Below are positions 27,209-32,528 of a DNA stretch of 64,000 nucleotides, in pieces; within the stretch, counting starts at the first letter, position 1; the number at the start of each line of letters is the position of its first letter. The stretch lies in sequence record PP301342.1; one strand, written 5' to 3'. The notes under the pieces are model-generated. The model was not told the DNA's origin and did not search any database. It worked only from the letters and a program-made list of their open reading frames with translations. The position numbers were made by a program, and so were the translations under genes. Source of the DNA: Escherichia phage UE-M3.

Positions 27209-27709
27209 CTAAACTAACACCCAGTCTTCAGCTAATATATCTGATTGGGATGGGACCCAAGGCATAAACTGGTCATCAACAGTTTTGATTCCTAACCATG
27301 GACGAGGTTTCAATTCATCAGCAAGTCCTGGACGCTCTAAGCTACTGCTATTCCATTCTTGAGCAGCAACGTACTCAATGTACATTCCTTTACCATTCCA
27401 GCCTTTACGGGCTAGTTTGAAGCCGGATTTGAGAAGCTCTACTGCATGACCAAAGGTGCAACCTTTTTCTACGTCATGGTACGCAGTTTCAAATGCAGAT
27501 TTAGGTGACCAGCTAATATAGCCACGGAACTGAGGATGGTTAGACTTAGAGTCTGGGTACTCTACTAAGTAACCTTCTTCTAATGGGTCTTCATTAGCAG
27601 GTACATCCCAGCCACGAAGTTTGCAGTATGTTTCTTTGTTCATTCGGAAACCATTTACACACTTGGTTCCGATATAATTGGTAAAATGGACTTTAATTTC
27701 TTCTGACAT
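27209..27709 (-). CDS. Two-domain conserved phage protein; C-terminal part resembles DUF2829-type motif
   Basis: ORF track start 27736 is GTG; ATG 27709 has GAGG Shine-Dalgarno; motifs KGWNGKGMYIEY and WVPSQSDILAEDWVLV. Confidence 0.5.
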   Translation of the reverse strand: MSEEIKVHFTNYIGTKCVNGFRMNKETYCKLRGWDVPANEDPLEEGYLVEYPDSKSNHPQFRGYISWSPKSAFETAYHDVEKGCTFGHAVELLKSGFKLARKGWNGKGMYIEYVAAQEWNSSSLERPGLADELKPRPWLGIKTVDDQFMPWVPSQSDILAEDWVLV

Positions 27710-27726
27710 AACTACCTCAAATGAGA

Positions 27727-27757
27727 AAGCCCTCACTAGGAGGGCTTGTTTTGTTTT
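27727..27757 (+). terminator. Terminator-like hairpin with + strand polarity inside a minus-strand gene block
   Basis: aagccctc-actag-gagggctt perfect 8-bp stem followed by gttttgtttt on + strand; lies in leader of gene 27209..27709. Confidence 0.35.
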
Positions 27758-27827
27758 GGCTTCATGAGCCTTACCACATGTCGGGTAGTTCAGTACCTTT
27801 CGGTAAAAACTACCTTACACTTTTGAA

Positions 27828-28208
27828 TCAGATTGTACAACCACCACCATCACAGGTGTTGTTTTCTGCAAAGGAAGCCAGAGCTTTAGCAGTCTCTTCT
27901 TTCTCATGCAGTGCCTGACGTAGCAGGTAACCTTCTAATTCCCAAATCTTATTGAATGCATTTTCATATGCATACTGACGGCCTTTTTGCTCATCATAGA
28001 TAGCTGGGTCAACACAGGCAGATACACCTTCAACTTTGAAGCCATTTTCCAAGATGATAATGCAATAGGTTATCAGACCCAGGTTAGCCAAATCATCTGC
28101 CGGGAGTGCAGATGGATCAACAAATGCAGACTTCACTGCATCAGCTCCATTAAAATAGTAGACGCTCTTAATCTTAGCTTCGATTGCTTCTTTACTTACT
28201 GTTGCCAT
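27828..28208 (-). CDS. Conserved phage protein (possibly N4 gp49-like family)
   Basis: ATG 28208 with GAGG Shine-Dalgarno; family assignment from memory of Phage_gp49_66-like pattern, unverified. Confidence 0.45.
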   Translation of the reverse strand: MATVSKEAIEAKIKSVYYFNGADAVKSAFVDPSALPADDLANLGLITYCIIILENGFKVEGVSACVDPAIYDEQKGRQYAYENAFNKIWELEGYLLRQALHEKEETAKALASFAENNTCDGGGCTI

Positions 28209-28377
28209 TATTAGCCTCATAGAGTGGTTTGAGTTTGTACTTAAACATGACTGCGTTGTTATAGGCTACGCTACCTGCAAACACCAAAGACTTGCGTCCT
28301 CGATTATCCGTTACCTCATAGGCATACGGGGTTGAGATTAGGTCAATCATATTGATTATCCAATTATTAATACTCAA
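28192..28377 (-). CDS. Small hypothetical protein
   Basis: 61-aa ORF overlapping downstream gene start; preceded by terminator hairpin. Confidence 0.4.
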   Translation of the reverse strand: MSINNWIINMIDLISTPYAYEVTDNRGRKSLVFAGSVAYNNAVMFKYKLKPLYEANNGNSK

Positions 28378-28380
28378 ATA

Positions 28381-28420
28381 AAAAAGTCCCCCAGAGTGAC
28401 GGCTCCAGGGGACTTAGTAC
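28381..28420 (-). terminator. Hairpin with T-run on minus strand, downstream of tRNA cluster
   Basis: agtcccc...ggggact stem with long loop, A-run on + side (T-run for minus transcripts). Confidence 0.4.
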
Positions 28421-28658
28421 TATTTACCCATAGCTGGGAGGCTTTTGGTTCTTACCACGAAGACAGTCCACGCTGACTAGACTTGGGATTGATAGTCCCG
28501 TTCCTGTGGTAATTACTCAGGCTAGGATTTAAGGAGTTCCTATTCTCCAGCGAAATTCCCGTCGAGGGGAATAACAATACAATAGCAGTCACTGGACTGT
28601 CTTACCAGTGTTGTCTTTAGAGTGCGATGCAATCAGGACTATGTTACTGCTGAATGGG

Positions 28659-28732
28659 TGTCCACTACTGGATTTGAACCAGTGACTTTCCGATTATTAG
28701 TCGGTTGCTTTCCCCGTCTAAGCTAAGCGGAC
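28659..28732 (-). tRNA. tRNA, canonical cloverleaf; anticodon loop CUAAUAA (anticodon AAU, isotype tentative Ile)
   Basis: Minus strand folds with acceptor GTCCGCT/AGTGGAC, D-arm GCTT/AAGC, anticodon stem ACCGA/TCGGA, T-arm ACTGG-TTCAAAT-CCAGT; CCA not encoded. Confidence 0.6.
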
Positions 28733-28738
28733 ATAATA

Positions 28739-28814
28739 TGGTTACCCGGACAGGATTCGAACCTGCGTCCTAGTTGGTTTACTAGTGGGGCTTTACCACT
28801 AAGCCTACCGGGTA
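28739..28814 (-). tRNA. tRNA-like gene with encoded CCA but non-canonical anticodon loop (6- or 8-nt)
   Basis: Acceptor TACCCGG/CCGGGTA, D-arm GGCT-TAGTGGTAA-AGCC, T-arm GCAGG-TTCGAAT-CCTGT, 3-prime ACCA; anticodon region CTAGT-AAACCA-ACTAG cannot form a 7-nt loop. Confidence 0.55.
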
Positions 28815-29115
28815 TTAATAGGTGAGTCATGCCAGACTCTAACTGGCTCCTTCTTCGCAATCCTTACATACCCCTACATAATTATTGCGTTAAGCTTTTT
28901 TGTTTAAGTTTAAGTGAAGGCGTTCTTGCTGACTCATAATTGGGTTGGGCGTTTGACGAATGACTAGTTCGTTACTACCCGTTTGCCATAAGTACCTGGC
29001 GACTTTGGTTTGAGGTGGGAGTCCGAGTCCTGTACAGCCTTACCGTTCACACATTGGCAGCGTATCTAGAGTTGCACTTCCGGCAACTGGATTTAACTGT
29101 TACACCTCAAATAGG

Positions 29116-29215
29116 CAGTGGGGGATGGAATCGAACCATCAGTATTAAGTCTTATTCGTGCACCAAGCACGCTAGTAGATTACTCTACCGGAGGGAATCG
29201 AACCCTATCTACTTC
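29116..29215 (-). other. Two adjacent tRNA-like T-arm motifs with no canonical cloverleaf resolved by eye
   Basis: Minus strand GATGG-TTCGATT-CCATC and TAGGG-TTCGATT-CCCTC plus D-loop-like GGTAGAG; acceptor pairing not found at canonical distance. Confidence 0.3.
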
Positions 29216-29322
29216 ACCAGACCCACCATAATTCTTCCAATTTAGAGTAGCATTGTCACGGTGGGTGCTTTAAATGCCGGGAAACATTTAAATATACAAT
29301 GCTACTTTGAATTGGTTATCAG

Positions 29323-29436
29323 TGAAGGATTCGAACCTCCGGTTGGAGTCTATAGCTTACCGCAGCAGCCCTCCAATCTAGCGGTGTCACACTTAGTCCA
29401 AACTTGAACATGTCAAGCCATCTCGTGCAACTGATA
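29323..29436 (-). other. tRNA-like element with encoded CCA, unusually long (~114 nt)
   Basis: T-arm GGAGG-TTCGAAT-CCTTC, 3-prime ACTGATA-A-CCA; only complementary 5-prime strand TATCAGT lies 110 nt away; internal TTGGAG/CTCCAA stem. Confidence 0.35.
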
Positions 29437-29438
29437 AT

Positions 29439-29504
29439 TGGTTCCGGCGTCTGGACTCGAACCAGAACACTCATGCCGTGCACGACACTAGTACCTACAC
29501 CGGA
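29439..29504 (-). other. tRNA-like element with encoded CCA, unusually short or mis-delimited
   Basis: T-arm TCTGG-TTCGAGT-CCAGA, acceptor TCCGGTG/CGCCGGA, CCA encoded; body too short for a canonical tRNA. Confidence 0.3.
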
Positions 29505-29571
29505 ATTAATTGCCAGGGATTCCACCTGGCTCCATCTGTTTTTATAGTCACTCAGATATCGTCTGGACTGT

Positions 29572-29649
29572 AGGCATGGGTGGGAATCGAACCCACAAAC
29601 CATTCAGCACTGTAGCCTCACGCTCTACCTATTTGAGCTATCACATACC
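29572..29649 (-). other. tRNA-like element (T-arm and D-arm-like motifs, anticodon arm not canonical)
   Basis: GTGGG-TTCGATT-CCCAC T-arm, AGCTCAAATAGGTAGAGC D-arm-like, acceptor GGTATGT/CCATGCC with one mismatch. Confidence 0.35.
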
Positions 29650-30329
29650 ATTGATTAACTCCCCGTTTCTAATACATGGACGGGGACACTCCACGGTCGT
29701 TTGATAATCAGGACGACTCACTCCTGACTGACGCTTGGCTTATTAGGCTGCCATCAGAACAACATCATCGTTTGCATTTATGTTATTGGTTCGTTTCTAA
29801 AAAACCGCATAATCGCTTACGAAAACTATCAAAGAGTACACTAGCTCTGGGCCACGCTTGTGGACATCGGCCTACCTTCCACAGCTAATCAACTAATGCA
29901 CTCACTGATAGCCCATAATAGGGGGGAGGGGACGAATCCTCCCTTTATACCCTATATTGCATGTAAGATCTAACAGTTCGATGTTGTAGGTAGCTAGGCT
30001 ATCCGACATTTAACCCAGCCCATATAGGGGCTTATGTGATTAGAATGCTCAACATTGAGCGGTTAGTTTGATAAGGGATCTGAAGCCTTATCCTAAAGAT
30101 ACTAACCTTTGGGATATAGCCTAAGATTCAGAAATGGCCCCTATAGGGAGAGGCCATTGATTAACCCGAATGTTGCTTTACATTTGCTGTGATAACCAAT
30201 TCTTAAAATAGTCTGTCTGACGGATGGGGGTCCACCCCTAGCGTCAGTGCCATACGGCAAAGATTAAGTTAAGAAAGGTTATGATAGGAGTTCCTATCTC
30301 AAAGGATTCTAACAGAACCCTTCACGATA

Positions 30330-30500
30330 TTAACTACTCTTTTTTAATGCCTTTACTTCACCATCTTTATACCAAGCATATGGTATTAAGATTTTGCAAC
30401 CTTCTGAATCAATGTGGAATGCTTTGTTCCCTTCAACAGGTTCTCCACCCACGAAAGAACTAACCTTTCCATTGAGCCAGTGAATAGTAAATTTGTTCAT
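30330..30500 (-). CDS. Small ORF (56 aa) below ORF-track cutoff
   Basis: ATG 30500 to stop 30330 on minus strand; protein-like composition; weak Shine-Dalgarno. Confidence 0.25.
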   Translation of the reverse strand: MNKFTIHWLNGKVSSFVGGEPVEGNKAFHIDSEGCKILIPYAWYKDGEVKALKKSS

Positions 30501-30731
30501 GTTAACCCTGTTTGAACCAATCCCCTTCAGAGAGTATTAAAGGGGACTGGTTCGGTTGTTGTTATTCTGGCGGCTTGTCACCACCGTGTTTACCACTGCA
30601 TTTCCACAGGATAATGACAGTGATGATAAAAGCTATGTATGGAGCCGACACGTCTATAATCCTGACCAGTAGTAGCATCAGGACTATAAACACTACCACA
30701 CCTAGCAGCAGCTTCTGAGCCACCTACCAGA

Positions 30732-31175
30732 TTAACTACGTTTAAGGCCAGCGAACAGTGAAGGTTTCGCAGCAGGTTTCTCTGCTGGTTCTTCAGCCTT
30801 AACCTCTTCCTGCACAACTTCTTCTTGTGCTTCTGGTTCAGTTACTGCTTCTTCTTCAGGTTCCGGCGTAGAACTCTCGTTCGGACCACCAGTAGAGGTC
30901 TGGATTTCTTCTCCCTTTACCTCTTCAACCACTTCTTCTGGTTCCGGTTCTACCGGACGGTGTTTAGCTTCCTGAGGGTTCTTACGAGAACGACGTGTCT
31001 TCTTCTCTACCAAGGGCGGAGTATCATCGTTATGACTTACCTCTTCGTTAATACCAACGGAGGCTGTACCATCTGCATTGATGACAATACTAATGTCTCC
31101 AGCAAGATTGATTTGATCATCGACATAAGCCTGTACAGCAGCTTCTACTTCGGACTGGTTCAAAATGATTTGCAT
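30732..31175 (-). CDS. Acidic Pro/Glu-rich low-complexity protein
   Basis: 147 aa; C-terminal half E/P/V-rich repeats; adjacent to RuvC-like gene. Confidence 0.5.
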   Translation of the reverse strand: MQIILNQSEVEAAVQAYVDDQINLAGDISIVINADGTASVGINEEVSHNDDTPPLVEKKTRRSRKNPQEAKHRPVEPEPEEVVEEVKGEEIQTSTGGPNESSTPEPEEEAVTEPEAQEEVVQEEVKAEEPAEKPAAKPSLFAGLKRS

Positions 31176-31176
31176 A

Positions 31177-31731
31177 TTACGCCTTTATTAAATTAAGAAG
31201 GTTTTGGAAAGCTGGGAGATTTACACCAGCGTGGATTGCACCGATTGCATCTGCTAAGTGCTCATTCTTATTCAGAAGTTTACCTTTTTTATCTGTGAGC
31301 CAGTTGGCTTCTGGATAGATAGCATGGGCAGCACGAATCATCGTGTCTTTGGATGCAGTTTTATCACCGACCAGTGCAAGTTTATTTTCAATTGGGGATA
31401 CTTCAAAGATTGGACAACCCAATGCACGAAATGCACCAATTAATCCTACGCATACGCCATAGGATTTCATACCGTTAGCAGACTGAGAGCCTACTGGTAC
31501 TTCTACGAATACTGCTTTAGCAGACCGTAACCATTCTTCACAACCAAGAAACAAATCGTGAGCGGCTTGTATATCTTTGGAGTTGGTTCGAACTTGTTTG
31601 TTGTGGTCAACTTCAGTTTGAACCAGTTTAAGTTCGACCTGCTCGAAGACGCCGGACTCAATGTCCAGCATCCCACGAGCTAAACCCCAATTGCGGAGAC
31701 TAATGTCTGCACCAACAATTGGGATTTTCAT
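31177..31731 (-). CDS. RuvC-like Holliday junction resolvase (RNase H fold) candidate
   Basis: 184 aa; N-terminal MKIPIVGADIS and C-terminal ADAIGAIHAG resemble RuvC catalytic motifs. Confidence 0.45.
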   Translation of the reverse strand: MKIPIVGADISLRNWGLARGMLDIESGVFEQVELKLVQTEVDHNKQVRTNSKDIQAAHDLFLGCEEWLRSAKAVFVEVPVGSQSANGMKSYGVCVGLIGAFRALGCPIFEVSPIENKLALVGDKTASKDTMIRAAHAIYPEANWLTDKKGKLLNKNEHLADAIGAIHAGVNLPAFQNLLNLIKA

Positions 31732-32528
31732 TAACGTTTACCGAACAGTGATTTACCACCAGCAGGAGCAGTACCCGTGCCAGCACTTGGTTTAGGAGGC
31801 AAGCCACCTTTGCCATTACCACCAGCAGAACCCTTGGTCTTATCACGGGTTTTACCCTTGTTCTTTTCTAACCATGCTGCATAAAATACAGCCAGTTCTG
31901 GGGTCAGTTCTTTCTCAGCCTTCTCTGCTTCCTGAGCCTCGACGACTGTGACCAGCAGTTCCGGGTGAAACACTTTCTGAATCTCGTTTACTTCACGGGT
32001 TTCACCGGAATCAACGTAACCGTTGTCACCCTTAACCTGCTTAGATTCCAGAACCTTTTCCAGGGCGAAGGTAACAGTCTGACCAACCAGGTCTACTGGA
32101 ACCATGACAGATTTATTAACTTCTGCTTTAGCATCGAAGTCATAGACTTTAACAATCTTCTCTTCGAAGTCAGCTTCAGGCAGTTCCGTACCGGTAGCCA
32201 TCAGCATCATGTCGTTAATGACGGTGTATCCCGGCAGGAAGTATTCTTTACCGTTCTTCTCGTAAGTAGGCTTATTGCCTTTAGAATTACCAGAAGTGAA
32301 GTACACCTGTGAACGGAACTCGCCAGCATCATTACCATCAGAACCTTTCAGGTTTTCAATGATTAACTGCATCCAGTCTGCACCAGAGTCAGCTTTACCT
32401 ACGTAAGCTACTTTTACAGTACCGGTGTAGATATCTGACTCCTTTGCACCGAAGCCACCACCACCAAGGGAGTCTTTTACAGCTTCAACGTTTTTGGTTT
32501 TTTCTTTCAAGTTACTGAACAGTGACAT
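31731..32528 (-). CDS. Single-stranded DNA-binding protein (N4 gp45-like by size and position)
   Basis: 265 aa (N4 SSB recalled as 265 aa); Gly-rich basic C-terminal tail; sits in replication module. Confidence 0.5.
   Translation of the reverse strand: MSLFSNLKEKTKNVEAVKDSLGGGGFGAKESDIYTGTVKVAYVGKADSGADWMQLIIENLKGSDGNDAGEFRSQVYFTSGNSKGNKPTYEKNGKEYFLPGYTVINDMMLMATGTELPEADFEEKIVKVYDFDAKAEVNKSVMVPVDLVGQTVTFALEKVLESKQVKGDNGYVDSGETREVNEIQKVFHPELLVTVVEAQEAEKAEKELTPELAVFYAAWLEKNKGKTRDKTKGSAGGNGKGGLPPKPSAGTGTAPAGGKSLFGKR

Follow-up and report, generated by a model that had tools for sequence, protein, structure and literature searches.

The window, i.e., the whole stretch of 64,000 nucleotides analyzed here (Escherichia phage UE-M3, PP301342.1), shows 100% identity with the N4-like Escherichia phage UE-S5a (Gamaleyavirus). 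The deposited record PP175015.1 has no annotation between window positions 29650 and 30330. Since the minus strand carries every flanking gene as well as both tRNAs, we regard it as the strand to read. On this strand an RNA cluster of approximately 1.9 kb begins at a promoter-like site near 30333 and ends with a terminator at 28415-28384, and the hairpin-rich interval is its upstream half. From upstream to downstream the features are:

30306..30333, minus strand: sigma-70-like promoter candidate (TTAATA, 16 nt, TAGAAT with an upstream TG; 9/12 matches)
29909..30300, minus strand: structured multi-hairpin leader (MFE z -5.58 and inverted repeats), with hairpins at 30247-30217, 30158-30133, ~30107-30061, 30063-30046, 30032-30016, and 29944-29925
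29829..29908, minus strand: X hairpin (inverted repeat and fold), a 16-bp stem UCAGUGAGUGCAUUAG / CUAGUGUACUCUUUGA with a hypervariable tip
29650..29828, minus strand: core small RNA of ~180 nt, a member of an unannotated RNA family, here named anti-tmRNA tag RNA
29572..29649, minus strand: degenerate tRNA-like element adjoining the tag RNA, "tRNA-Cys" at relaxed thresholds only
28655..28814, minus strand: tRNA-Ile and a second tRNA
28384..28415, minus strand: strong intrinsic terminator (13-bp stem, then UUUUUUAUUU) closing the RNA and tRNA cluster

The promoter candidate directly follows the stop codon of an upstream 56-aa ORF and may initiate or boost the transcription of the cluster; it is a consensus match only, and the number of such sites is no higher than in shuffled sequences. 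The tag RNA is contiguous with the tRNA and tRNA-like genes, on the same strand, and lies between one promoter-like site and one terminator. An earlier note on this DNA proposed processing sites for the tRNA transcript; the part of this suggestion that is plausible is the common strand and the apparent shared unit from 30333-30306 to 28415-28384.

The element at 29572-29649 is labeled tRNA-Cys in the deposited record and is 89.7% identical to tRNA-Gln of Klebsiella T4-like phages. ARAGORN detects it with the -ps option only, and the Rfam tmRNA model (RF00023) matches its T arm alone (15.5 bits against a gathering score of 47). Its 5' end is likely an RNase P site, which would set the 3' end of the tag RNA. 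On the other side, the X hairpin belongs to a family of hairpins that bracket RNA cassettes and occur in many phages: its core GAGCAUU...AGUGCUC is also found flanking the tag cassette of prophages and downstream of tR' in lambda. ECBP1, IME11, and the window have different tips. The X hairpin is a probable processing signal setting the 5' end of the tag RNA.

All three inverted repeats described previously are present in the interval. The first, ccccg 29661-29665 / cgggg 29681-29685, was confirmed by direct reading. The second (atggcc/ggccat) lies inside aatggcccct 30133-30142 / agaggccatt 30149-30158, and the third (gggg-tcca-cccc, 30226-30238) is within a longer pair, ctgacggatgggg 30217-30229 / cccctagcgtcag 30235-30247. 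A further, longer repeat of 19 nt (29826-29844 / 29893-29911) was absent from the earlier note, which read the plus strand, where the nature of the RNA is not visible. We agree that there is no convincing ORF: those of the interval are of 35-70 aa, none is conserved in frame, and none has a match in Pfam. The 35-aa ORF at 29905-30009 (minus strand) matches phrog_37481 (unknown function), but was rejected as a conserved gene, since its frame is broken in IME11, ZQ2, and IME267.

The suggestion of a structured non-coding RNA is right. The minimum free energy of 29905-30300 (minus strand) is -124.9 kcal/mol compared with -98.5 +/- 4.7 for dinucleotide shuffles (z -5.58), none of the 100 shuffles being as good. 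Within the leader, segment 30098-29909 is a module in common with podophages of the Suseptimavirus/Kuravirus group. It is 78% identical to IME267, with a compensatory change from GAUAAGG/CCUUAUC to GAUAGGA/UCCUAUC, and has no match among 5426 E. coli genomes.

The tag RNA itself is composed of the following elements:

29787..29828, minus strand: antisense ("anti-tmRNA") domain, UAGUUUUCGU-AA-GCGAUUA-UGCGGUUUUUUA-G-AAACGAACCA
29776..29786, minus strand: single-stranded spacer of 11 nt, AUAACAUAAAU, whose positions -5 and -4 relative to the resume codon are U and A
29740..29775, minus strand: tag frame GCA AAC GAU GAU GUU GUU CUG AUG GCA GCC UAA UAA (ANDDVVLMAA and two stops)
29737..29752, minus strand: weak helix-5-like hairpin (GGC / GCC; fold) with the stop codons in its loop
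29696..29727, minus strand: pseudoknot PK2, stem 1 UCAGGA 29727-29722 / UCCUGA 29713-29708, stem 2 GUCG 29717-29714 / CGAC 29699-29696
29661..29694, minus strand: pseudoknot PK3, stem 1 GUGGA 29694-29690 / UCCAU 29680-29676, stem 2 CCCCG 29685-29681 / CGGGG 29665-29661 (the first inverted repeat above)

Trans-translation by tmRNA and SmpB is the main bacterial pathway of ribosome rescue and quality control, and it is a drug target. The 3' two-thirds of the tag RNA is tmRNA-like: U(-5)A(-4) precede a resume codon, the tag of 10 codons closes with two stops, and a pair of covarying pseudoknots follows. The host tmRNA has a spacer of equal length (A79-C89) and the same U85/A86. The latter are positions -5/-4 in E. 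coli, and A86 has a role in frame selection. In the family A(-4) is present in 87/87 members and U(-5) in 85/87.

The tag frame lacks a start codon, and there is none between it and an in-frame UAG 21 nt upstream. Family tags comprise 17 peptides (29 nucleotide variants), each exactly 10 codons long and closed by a stop. In the tag region, internal stops interrupt the other two frames in 28/29 and 25/29 variants; the differences between family tags include synonymous ones (GCA AAC / GCU AAU; GUU/GUA/GUC). Translation as a conventional small ORF, or by read-through from a UUG upstream, was rejected because the frame relation varies among members. An IRES-like start at the alanine codon was also rejected, since the spacing suits tmRNA geometry and not an adjacent pseudoknot.

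The earlier note had called for covariance across related genomes, and it is found in both pseudoknots. In 32 family members, PK2 stem 1 covaries (CG/UA, GC/AU/GU, AU/GC/CG), as does stem 2 (GC/AU, AU/GC); pairing is observed in 99.2% of cells of this covariation test versus 33-58% with the partner slid. PK3 stem 1 covaries across the family (CAC/GUG, CAG/CUG, CAU/AUG) and also within the subtype of the window: GUGGA/UCCAU in the window, GCAGA/UCUGU in P1, and AUGGA/UCCGU in L079 and 2050H1. MAFFT alignments are not structure-consistent for helix 5 and PK3 stem 2, and both were judged by eye. By this assessment PK3 stem 2 differs between subtypes in sequence and length with complementarity kept, and other subtypes have GGCU/AGCC, GCC/GGC, or AGCC/GGCU at the helix-5 position, in a register that varies between subtypes. 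No intramolecular PK1 was found in the tag RNA; the nearly invariant antisense domain stands upstream instead.

Could the RNA be a tmRNA in its own right? The Rfam model of permuted tmRNA (RF04321) aligns across the tag with 32.7 bits (E 2.5e-4), below the gathering score of 47; the alignment leans on the tag sequence, and its helices contain non-canonical pairs. ARAGORN finds no tmRNA in the window at default settings and names the tag (ANDDVVLMAA followed by two stops) at relaxed thresholds only. Nothing else tmRNA-like was found within the window. A canonical tmRNA or tRNA was thus rejected, as ARAGORN (default and relaxed) and Rfam (gathering and E-value) give only sub-threshold matches.

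A self-contained divergent tmRNA, one- or two-piece, in which the neighboring tRNA-like element serves as the acceptor/T-arm domain (29572-29858 in the relaxed ARAGORN prediction), is very improbable. Such a molecule is what ARAGORN calls with -ps90, with a T arm at 29580-29596, also matched by the Rfam tmRNA model, and a 5' strand GCGUGG at ~29857. However, the call needs lowered thresholds, and the proposed 5' acceptor strand falls in the hypervariable tip of the X hairpin. This tip differs in ECBP1 and IME11, which have the same tag RNA as the window, and is the same in IME267, which has no tag. ARAGORN detects no tRNA-like domain in 39 + 10 family loci, nor any tmRNA in these 49 at default settings; most members have no nearby T arm, the T arm being absent or at inconsistent positions, and the tag RNA has no G3-U70 pair with a CCA end. 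Furthermore, judging by promoter positions, transcripts of T1-like phages and Sf16 start at the antisense domain. In Sf11 and Sf16 a near-consensus promoter puts +1 on the first antisense nucleotide, which leaves no room for a 5' acceptor strand. The upstream acceptor piece of a two-piece tmRNA was looked for and not found; the X hairpin with its hypervariable tip is in this place. An acceptor-like pairing NAGUUUU/GAAACNN followed by ACCA was considered separately and rejected: position 71 varies uncompensated, and pair 3:70 is G-C.

The 5' domain is colinearly complementary to E. coli tmRNA nucleotides 97-106 (tag codons 3-6) and 85-91 (U85 A86 to G90 C91, resume codon), with further colinear blocks at 68-79 (the 3' half of pseudoknot 1) and ~57-62. 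The whole target, nucleotides ~55-107, thus comprises pseudoknot 1, the spacer, the resume codon, and codons 2-6. For the window, RNAduplex gives -41.5 kcal/mol at tmRNA 56-107 (z -4.8). The Smith-Waterman score against the reverse complement of tmRNA is 26 versus 15.8 +/- 2.6, with 6/1000 shuffles reaching 26. The same tmRNA site is targeted in all 12 of the 12 subtypes tested. Duplex energies are from -41 to -51 kcal/mol in seven subtypes with a full-length 5' domain, from -37.6 to -44.9 in three further members, and from -23 to -24 in two members with a short 5' domain. Local-alignment scores across subtypes are 24-42 against ~16 +/- 2.6, and are equalled by 0-10/1000 shuffles. The RNAduplex z-scores are of moderate size (-2.6 to -4.8), as the query is U-rich and the target A-rich. 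With the whole RNA as the query the energies are no better than those of shuffles, and only the run restricted to the 5' domain is informative.

Diverged 5' domains (GCGACUUUGCGG, GCGAUUAUGCGG, GCGUCUAUUUU, GAGUCGAUUAUUUUU) keep the complementarity via different subsets of the target. The antisense domain is no more complementary to the RNA's own tag than background. Among 120 Enterobacterales ssrA copies the target hardly varies, and it is present in 5426/5426 E. coli genomes. By sequence, the tag RNA is a candidate trans-acting antisense RNA against a host RNA, with the complementarity conserved in homologues. Erwinia phage Y2 has GAAGUUUUCGU at the place of AUAGUUUUCGU in E. coli phages; the difference would be compensatory if the Erwinia tag had AAC UUC instead of AAC UAC.

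Three other readings of pairing in this RNA were discarded. A PK1 or a closing helix formed by the 5' domain (GUUUU/GAAAC, UCG/CGA, GUCA/UGAC, UGCG/CGCA) shows no covariation, and antisense pairing explains the invariance better. The idea that the 5' domain is a relic of a permuted tmRNA minus its tRNA-like domain was given up once the antisense relation was recognized. Between the PK3 loop and tmRNA there is just a 7-nt match, and it is not conserved.

The family is found in 495 phage records from at least nine phage groups (unrelated families), i.e., in ~1% of sequenced phages, and in 657/5426 complete E. coli genomes (12%). A scan of genome contigs for the family returned chance matches only. 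The family is conserved and horizontally mobile in phages of Enterobacterales, prophages, and P1-like plasmids. The contexts of the cassette are unrelated: a lambda-type late leader, the P1 tRNA operon, and tail-gene regions of T1-like phages. In P1, Sf11, Sf16, and many prophages it is located just upstream of tRNA genes or amid them. A literature search returned no prior description of the tag RNA.

This distribution bears on two alternatives. A replication origin or packaging signal, the third option of the earlier note, scarcely deserves consideration: the density of inverted repeats is all that speaks for it. There are no iteron-like or multi-copy direct repeats, the conserved features (reading frame, covarying pseudoknots) are strand-specific features of an RNA, and the contexts of the cassette are unrelated. 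It is also improbable that the cassette represents decaying debris of captured tRNA or tmRNA genes, or processing spacers of a tRNA operon, with no function in trans. The neighborhood of the tag RNA is indeed full of degenerate tRNA-like elements, and the region is mosaic among relatives. A close relative, ZQ2, has no cassette, so it is dispensable in at least one close relative. Nevertheless, debris is hard to reconcile with the occurrence in hundreds of records of unrelated phages and 12% of E. coli genomes, or with covarying pseudoknots, a maintained reading frame, and a nearly invariant 5' domain.

Our preferred reading comes in two parts. There is about an even chance that the tag RNA binds host tmRNA by base pairing, covers the tag template of the host, and supplies a template of its own. 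The wider proposal is more tentative: host ribosome rescue may be taken over by a hybridizing phage RNA, so that the tethered surrogate template is read and stalled proteins receive a phage-specified tag. Both parts are derived from sequence comparison. The tag RNA would be freed from the operon transcript, or, in T1-like phages, made from its own promoter. Its 5' domain would nucleate on the single-stranded tag region of host tmRNA and then zip into pseudoknot 1 (~33 bp in UE-S5a). The duplex would hide the host resume codon and tag, and the phage template would be tethered 11 nt past the new helix, the same distance as that of the host resume codon past pseudoknot 1. When host Ala-tmRNA-SmpB rescues a ribosome, translation would continue on the phage template, adding AANDDVVLMAA and ending at UAA UAA. 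The net effect would be an exchange of the rescue tag and not a simple block of rescue. We know of no precedent for a ribosome resuming on an mRNA-like domain provided in trans via an RNA duplex.

A simpler possibility is that the RNA is an antisense inhibitor only: pairing with tmRNA stops tagging and rescue or triggers RNase III cleavage, and the 3' part is an untranslated leftover or a stabilizing scaffold. We regard this as unlikely. It draws on the same complementarity to tmRNA as the exchange of tags, and synthetic antisense oligonucleotides are enough to block trans-translation (PMC3384345, PMC7038980), with a reduction in vitro of >95% (PMC7038980). However, it leaves unexplained why the tag always has 10 codons and a stop, why the other frames are closed, the synonymous changes, the invariant A(-4), and the 11-nt spacer. 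Moreover, the phage needs ribosomes for itself, and a block alone would leave them stranded. Anti-tmRNA oligonucleotides keep nascent chains on stalled ribosomes (PMC3384345); therefore an unaccompanied block would be expected to trap ribosomes, which provides a rationale for a surrogate template. On the other hand, the phage tags end in AA or VA, and such ends are probably still ClpXP degrons (bioRxiv 10.1101/2024.01.29.576913). The gain from exchanging the tag is thus questionable, and this counts against the exchange, as do the moderate RNAduplex z-scores and the lack of the cassette in ZQ2.

The RNA might alternatively be a decoy, i.e., an mRNA-like domain without the tRNA-like part that titrates a host factor (S1, RNase R, or secondary SmpB sites), as a counterpart of the tmRNA of mycobacteriophage DS6A, which has the tRNA-like domain only. 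The tag region and two pseudoknots are kept, as a decoy would require, and a truncated phage tmRNA that inhibits tmRNA is a precedent (PMC4131195). We consider a decoy distinctly improbable, since it leaves unexplained both the constraint on the tag at the codon level and the colinear antisense domain.

If the exchange of tags is true, a widespread phage RNA directed against the tmRNA tag template would be a new kind of viral interference with host translation. It would also be the first anti-tmRNA known from nature and the first natural mRNA-like domain working in trans, giving a two-piece tmRNA that is a chimera of host and virus; this would bear on the way in which the tmRNA template is loaded by the ribosome. 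The unannotated RNA gene is present in ~500 phage and >650 E. coli genomes, and its carriers include P1-type plasmids, lambdoid prophages, and candidates for therapeutic phages (N4-like, T1-like, and Vi1-like). The family may offer a natural design for tmRNA inhibitors.

Among known systems, the tag RNA most invites comparison with bacterial tmRNA (SsrA; RF00023, permuted RF04321). Both have a GCA alanine resume codon without a start codon, U(-5)A(-4), and a 10-residue tag that opens with ANDD/ANDE and ends in hydrophobic residues and AA or VA. Also shared are the double stops in a small hairpin, the H-type pseudoknots after the tag, and a spacer of 11 nt that separates the resume codon from a helical element. 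Unlike bacterial tmRNA, the tag RNA has no acceptor stem, T arm, or CCA end, and hence would be neither chargeable nor able to enter the ribosome on its own. It has an antisense domain in place of pseudoknot 1 and two downstream pseudoknots, not three; it is under the Rfam gathering threshold (32.7 vs 47 bits) and is not called by ARAGORN at default. In the two-piece (circularly permuted) tmRNAs of cyanobacteria and of alpha- and beta-proteobacteria, a single gene gives rise to both pieces, which pair via the acceptor stem and helix 2. In contrast, the partners proposed here are a host RNA and a phage RNA, paired via the host tag region and pseudoknot 1.

AgvB and AsxR of enterohaemorrhagic E. 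coli prophages, reported by Tree et al. in 2014, are said to be phage-encoded anti-sRNAs, or RNA sponges. Like them, the tag RNA is a (pro)phage RNA proposed to base-pair with an abundant host non-coding RNA. Unlike them, it would target tmRNA and not Hfq-dependent sRNAs, its predicted pairing is much longer (~33-40 bp in colinear blocks), and it would bring a replacement for the function that it masks. Synthetic anti-tmRNA oligonucleotides of cell-free translation (PMC3384345, PMC7038980) are likewise antisense to the tag-template region. They are man-made DNA with no surrogate template, whereas the phage RNA would be their natural equivalent, joined to a tag module of its own.

Known phage tmRNAs (mycobacteriophages Bxz1, Catera, and others; Bacillus phage G) are complete, while the DS6A type consists of the tRNA-like half only (PMC4131195). 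The latter, named after mycobacteriophage DS6A, inhibits host tmRNA, and the phage tmRNAs listed in 2014 include none from Enterobacterales phages (PMC4131195). Like the DS6A RNA, the tag RNA is a phage-borne partial derivative of tmRNA. Unlike all known phage tmRNAs, the tag-RNA family keeps the mRNA-like half only, joins it to an antisense domain, and belongs to phages of Enterobacterales hosts.

Over 28400-31200 the window matches Escherichia phage UE-S5a, an N4-like Gamaleyavirus of the Schitoviridae, with 100% identity, and parts of the region are common to approximately 200 related phages. The minus strand carries every neighbouring ORF (27209-28377; 30330-32528) as well as the two tRNAs detected (28655-28733; 28739-28814), and it is therefore the strand on which the finding is read. 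The deposited record has no annotation within 29650-30330. The earlier note described this gap as hairpin-rich and devoid of a convincing ORF, and both observations were confirmed. All three of its inverted repeats were found (two of them are I8 and I10 among the numbered repeat pairs), together with a longer one, I1, of 19 nt (29826-29844 / 29893-29911). Only short ORFs are present, and none matches Pfam. One ORF of 35 aa matches a PHROG of unknown function; its frame is not intact in IME11, ZQ2 and IME267, being disrupted in the IME267 alignment by indels of 7, 5 and 11 nt. The minimum free energy of 29905-30300 (minus strand) is -124.9 kcal/mol vs -98.5 +/- 4.7 in dinucleotide shuffles (z -5.58). 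A repeat search revealed no iteron-like repeats in the region.

The features used below are as follows.
30333-30306, minus: promoter-like site, upstream boundary of the RNA cluster
29908-29829, minus: X hairpin, a 16-bp stem with a hypervariable tip
29828-29787, minus: 5' antisense domain of the tag RNA
29775-29740, minus: tag frame
29727-29722 with 29713-29708, minus: stem 1 of pseudoknot PK2
29717-29714 with 29699-29696, minus: stem 2 of PK2
29694-29690 with 29680-29676, minus: stem 1 of pseudoknot PK3
29685-29681 with 29665-29661, minus: stem 2 of PK3, the ccccg/cgggg repeat of the earlier note
28415-28384, minus: strong terminator, downstream boundary of the RNA cluster

Besides the gene-poor region, the cluster of about 1.9 kb between the promoter-like site and the terminator contains the two tRNAs and five degenerate tRNA-like elements.

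An Rfam E-value scan gave a sub-threshold match to permuted tmRNA at 29743-29845 (minus). It is based on cauaaauGCAAACGAUGAUGUUGUUCUGAUGGCAGCCUAAUAA, which codes for ANDDVVLMAA followed by two stops; ARAGORN reports this tag at relaxed thresholds only. We collected family members with BLAST plus two IMG/VR pattern scans, which yielded 495 phage records of what we call the tag RNA (by first word of organism name: Salmonella 192, Klebsiella 107, Escherichia 100, Shigella 26, Erwinia 20, and others). They belong to N4-like, Ackermannviridae, T1-like/Cedarrivervirus, Webervirus, lambdoid, P1-like, Ounavirinae, Grimontviridae and Chaseviridae phages. The tag RNA is also found in 657 of 5426 complete E. 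coli genomes, at 555 plasmid and 150 chromosome places, and is unannotated almost everywhere.

As far as can be judged from sequence, the tag acts as a coding sequence. The family has 17 tag peptides (ANDDVVLMAA, ANDDLMMVAA, ANDEQFLAVA, ANEEMYLAVA, ANDSEVLMAA and ANDNTFLAVA, for example) from 29 nucleotide variants, all of exactly 10 codons plus a stop, and diverged members add five more 10-codon variants (ANDNVFLAVA, ANDNAFRVAA, ANDNEMRAAA, ANDNAYLMVA, ANEEAYLMVA). The remaining two frames contain internal stops in 28 and 25 of the 29 variants. Some variants are synonymous (GCA AAC / GCU AAU; GUU/GUA/GUC). The frame has no start codon, and nearly all members have an in-frame stop 21 nt upstream. 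Before the resume codon, all family members have A(-4) and nearly all have U(-5); E. coli tmRNA, with its resume codon at nt 90, has U85/A86 at the same places, and A86 has a role in frame selection.

Two H-type pseudoknots, PK2 and PK3, are located downstream of the tag. In a 32-sequence alignment their pairing holds in 99.2% of cells, with compensatory changes in 7 of 12 pairs, and falls to 33-58% if the partner is slid. A complete tmRNA would also need a tRNA-like domain. ARAGORN found no tmRNA in 49 family loci, T-arm motifs near family members are absent or inconsistent in position, and no other tmRNA-like sequence is present elsewhere in the 64-kb window. In Sf11 (TTGACA, 17 nt, TAGATT) and Sf16 (TTGACA, 17 nt, TAAGAT), the start set by a near-consensus promoter coincides with nucleotide 1 of the conserved element. 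With relaxed settings ARAGORN did assemble a tmRNA in the window, for which the neighbouring tRNA-like element supplied the T arm and the X hairpin tip the 5' strand. This candidate was rejected: the tip differs in ECBP1 and IME11 despite the same tag RNA, and the same tip occurs in IME267, which has no tag RNA.

The most conserved part of the family is the 5' domain, UAGUUUUCGU..GCGA..UGCGG..UUUUUA..GAAAC..ACCA. It has no internal covariation and is the reverse complement of tmRNA, as compared with a real E. coli ssrA, in colinear blocks.
tmRNA nt 96/97-106: block UAGUUUUCGU(C)
tmRNA nt 85/87-91: block GCGAC or GCGAUUA
tmRNA nt 75-81: block UUUGCGG
tmRNA nt 68-74: block CUUUUUA
tmRNA nt 57-62: block UGACC

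RNAduplex placed the domain at the same site of the whole tmRNA in 7 of 7 subtypes (-41.5 to -51.2 kcal/mol). Local alignment to the tmRNA reverse complement scored 26-42 vs approximately 16 +/- 2.6 in dinucleotide shuffles; the observed score was matched by 0-6 of 1000 shuffles for the subtypes first tested, and by 0-10 of 1000 for five more diverged members (Sf16, 7-11, Y2, 2050H1, PhAPEC5), which target the same site. The target subsets vary among the latter: Sf16 and Y2 pair through an A-rich spacer skipped by others. "Long-form" inserts of the domain pair with AAACGA. Against its own tag the domain gave background only (scores 10-17, duplexes -20 to -31 kcal/mol), and the codons targeted by the first block differ between the phage and host tags. 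The target is almost invariant in 120 Enterobacterales ssrA copies. The spacing from the antisense domain to the phage resume codon is 11 nt, or 12 nt in a few members; pseudoknot 1 of the host tmRNA likewise lies 11 nt from the host resume codon. Erwinia phage Y2 (L333 395-480) has the block GAAGUUUUCGU in place of AUAGUUUUCGU of E. coli phages, which would be compensatory if the Erwinia tmRNA tag is AAC UUC instead of AAC UAC; genera related to Erwinia presumably have the tag ANDENF...

The cassette is mobile and mosaic. Its neighbours in P1 are dmt on one side and the tRNA-Asn/Thr genes on the other; it is upstream of tRNA-Ser/Arg in Sf11, between tRNA genes in Sf16, in the late leader after tR' in lambdoid prophages, and within a CDS-free stretch of about 2.2 kb in Ackermannviridae. 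In IME11 (L455 1190-1480) a 5' half of the window type, antisense domain and tag, is joined to pseudoknots of the Sf11 type. PhAPEC5 (L454 1020-1300) has a different tag, ANEEAYLMVA, changed mainly in the middle codons. ZQ2 (L456) lacks 29894-29569 wholly, the cassette included; an HNH homing endonuclease gene is immediately upstream of the region there. The Ackermannviridae stretch of Klebsiella phage KpS110 (L003 776-3014) is dense in structured RNA. Besides the tag RNA it has X-type hairpins and tRNA-like elements, and a sequence there matches STnc100 (Salmonella sRNA family, RF02076) over the full length at 48.7 bits, above the gathering score. P1 has a partial STnc100 match downstream of its tRNA genes (L002 2683-2803).

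Hairpins of the X family (core GAGCAUU...AGUGCUC) occur on both sides of the cassette in prophages and after tR' in lambda. Long hairpins built on the stem core GGUAAGAGCAUU...AGUGCUCUUUCC, with tips that are hypervariable and in some cases hold a T arm, are found in the window (29829-29908), in lambda (NC_001416 44788-44860; L458 289-361), as a single copy immediately after tR', and in prophages L017, L048, L072, L130 and L141. They bracket RNA cassettes in the lambdoid late leader and in P1, T1-like, N4-like and Ackermannviridae phages, and might serve as a processing site or as a scaffold for the variable tips. Upstream, the hairpin module 30098-29909 (minus) has 78% identity with compensatory changes to Suseptimavirus/Kuravirus-group podophages (IME267, L005 1501-1795), where the counterpart is likewise non-coding and homology stops at the start of the tag RNA; the upstream leader, this module included, has no counterpart in the 5426 E. 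coli genomes. Prophage loci L017, L048, L051, L072 and L130 have a conserved domain about 200-330 nt downstream of the tag, with the closing pair GUUGUGGUG / CACCACAAC enclosing hairpins GCGCAGGCUGAUGCGC and GCCGGAGAUCAGCACCGGC. In lambdoid late leaders its place is behind the X hairpin, and a related version exists in lambda.

The interval 29100-29650 (minus) is occupied by five tRNA-like elements whose T arms are good (near 29140, 29205, 29340, 29460 and 29590); neither ARAGORN with default settings nor Rfam calls them as tRNAs. Some are annotated in relatives as tRNA-Thr (flagged tRNA-Pseudo-ACA in ECBP1), tRNA-Val and tRNA-Cys, and UE-S5a has a "hypothetical protein" CDS across them. Either decay of former tRNAs or purposeful mimicry of tRNAs could explain them. 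The tRNA at 28739-28814 (minus) is normal in acceptor stem, D arm and T arm. Its anticodon loop is abnormal, with a 2-nt "anticodon" ac according to ARAGORN and the label "tRNA-OTHER" in the record. The 12-mer GUUAAUCAAUGG is present twice (30154-30165 and 29648-29659, minus), ending at the first G's of a stem, that of a GGCCUC...GGGGCC hairpin and that of a tRNA-like element; the two copies may mark a common context, either of a 5' leader or for RNase P.

We propose that the tag RNA is cut out of the operon transcript, plausibly by RNase III at the upstream X hairpin and by RNase P at the downstream tRNA-like element. It would pair with the single-stranded tag region of the host tmRNA and then invade pseudoknot 1, hiding the host resume codon and keeping the phage template tethered at the equivalent position. 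With synthetic antisense oligonucleotides to tmRNA, trans-translation is abolished and nascent chains are retained on stalled ribosomes (PMC7038980, PMC3384345), therefore antisense alone would trap ribosomes; a surrogate template with two terminal stops would spare them. This tethered-template model is the only one found to account for the codon-level constraint as well as for the absence of a tRNA-like domain. Since an AA or LVA ending makes a tag a good ClpXP degron (bioRxiv 10.1101/2024.01.29.576913), the proposed tag swap probably changes the recruitment of adaptors or nucleases rather than prevents degradation.

Phage tmRNAs listed in 2014 were complete forms in mycobacteriophages and Bacillus phage G, plus one with the tRNA-like domain only (PMC4131195); a tmRNA database of 2025 has 79 phage sequences. 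We found neither a natural anti-tmRNA nor a description of the tag RNA family in the literature, and the chance of a categorically new mechanism is substantial. The tag RNA would work partly as tmRNA does but has no tRNA-like domain, the defining feature of tmRNA. Its proposed action through base pairing is shared with phage anti-sRNAs, and the proposed division of two functions between chains with two-piece tmRNAs.
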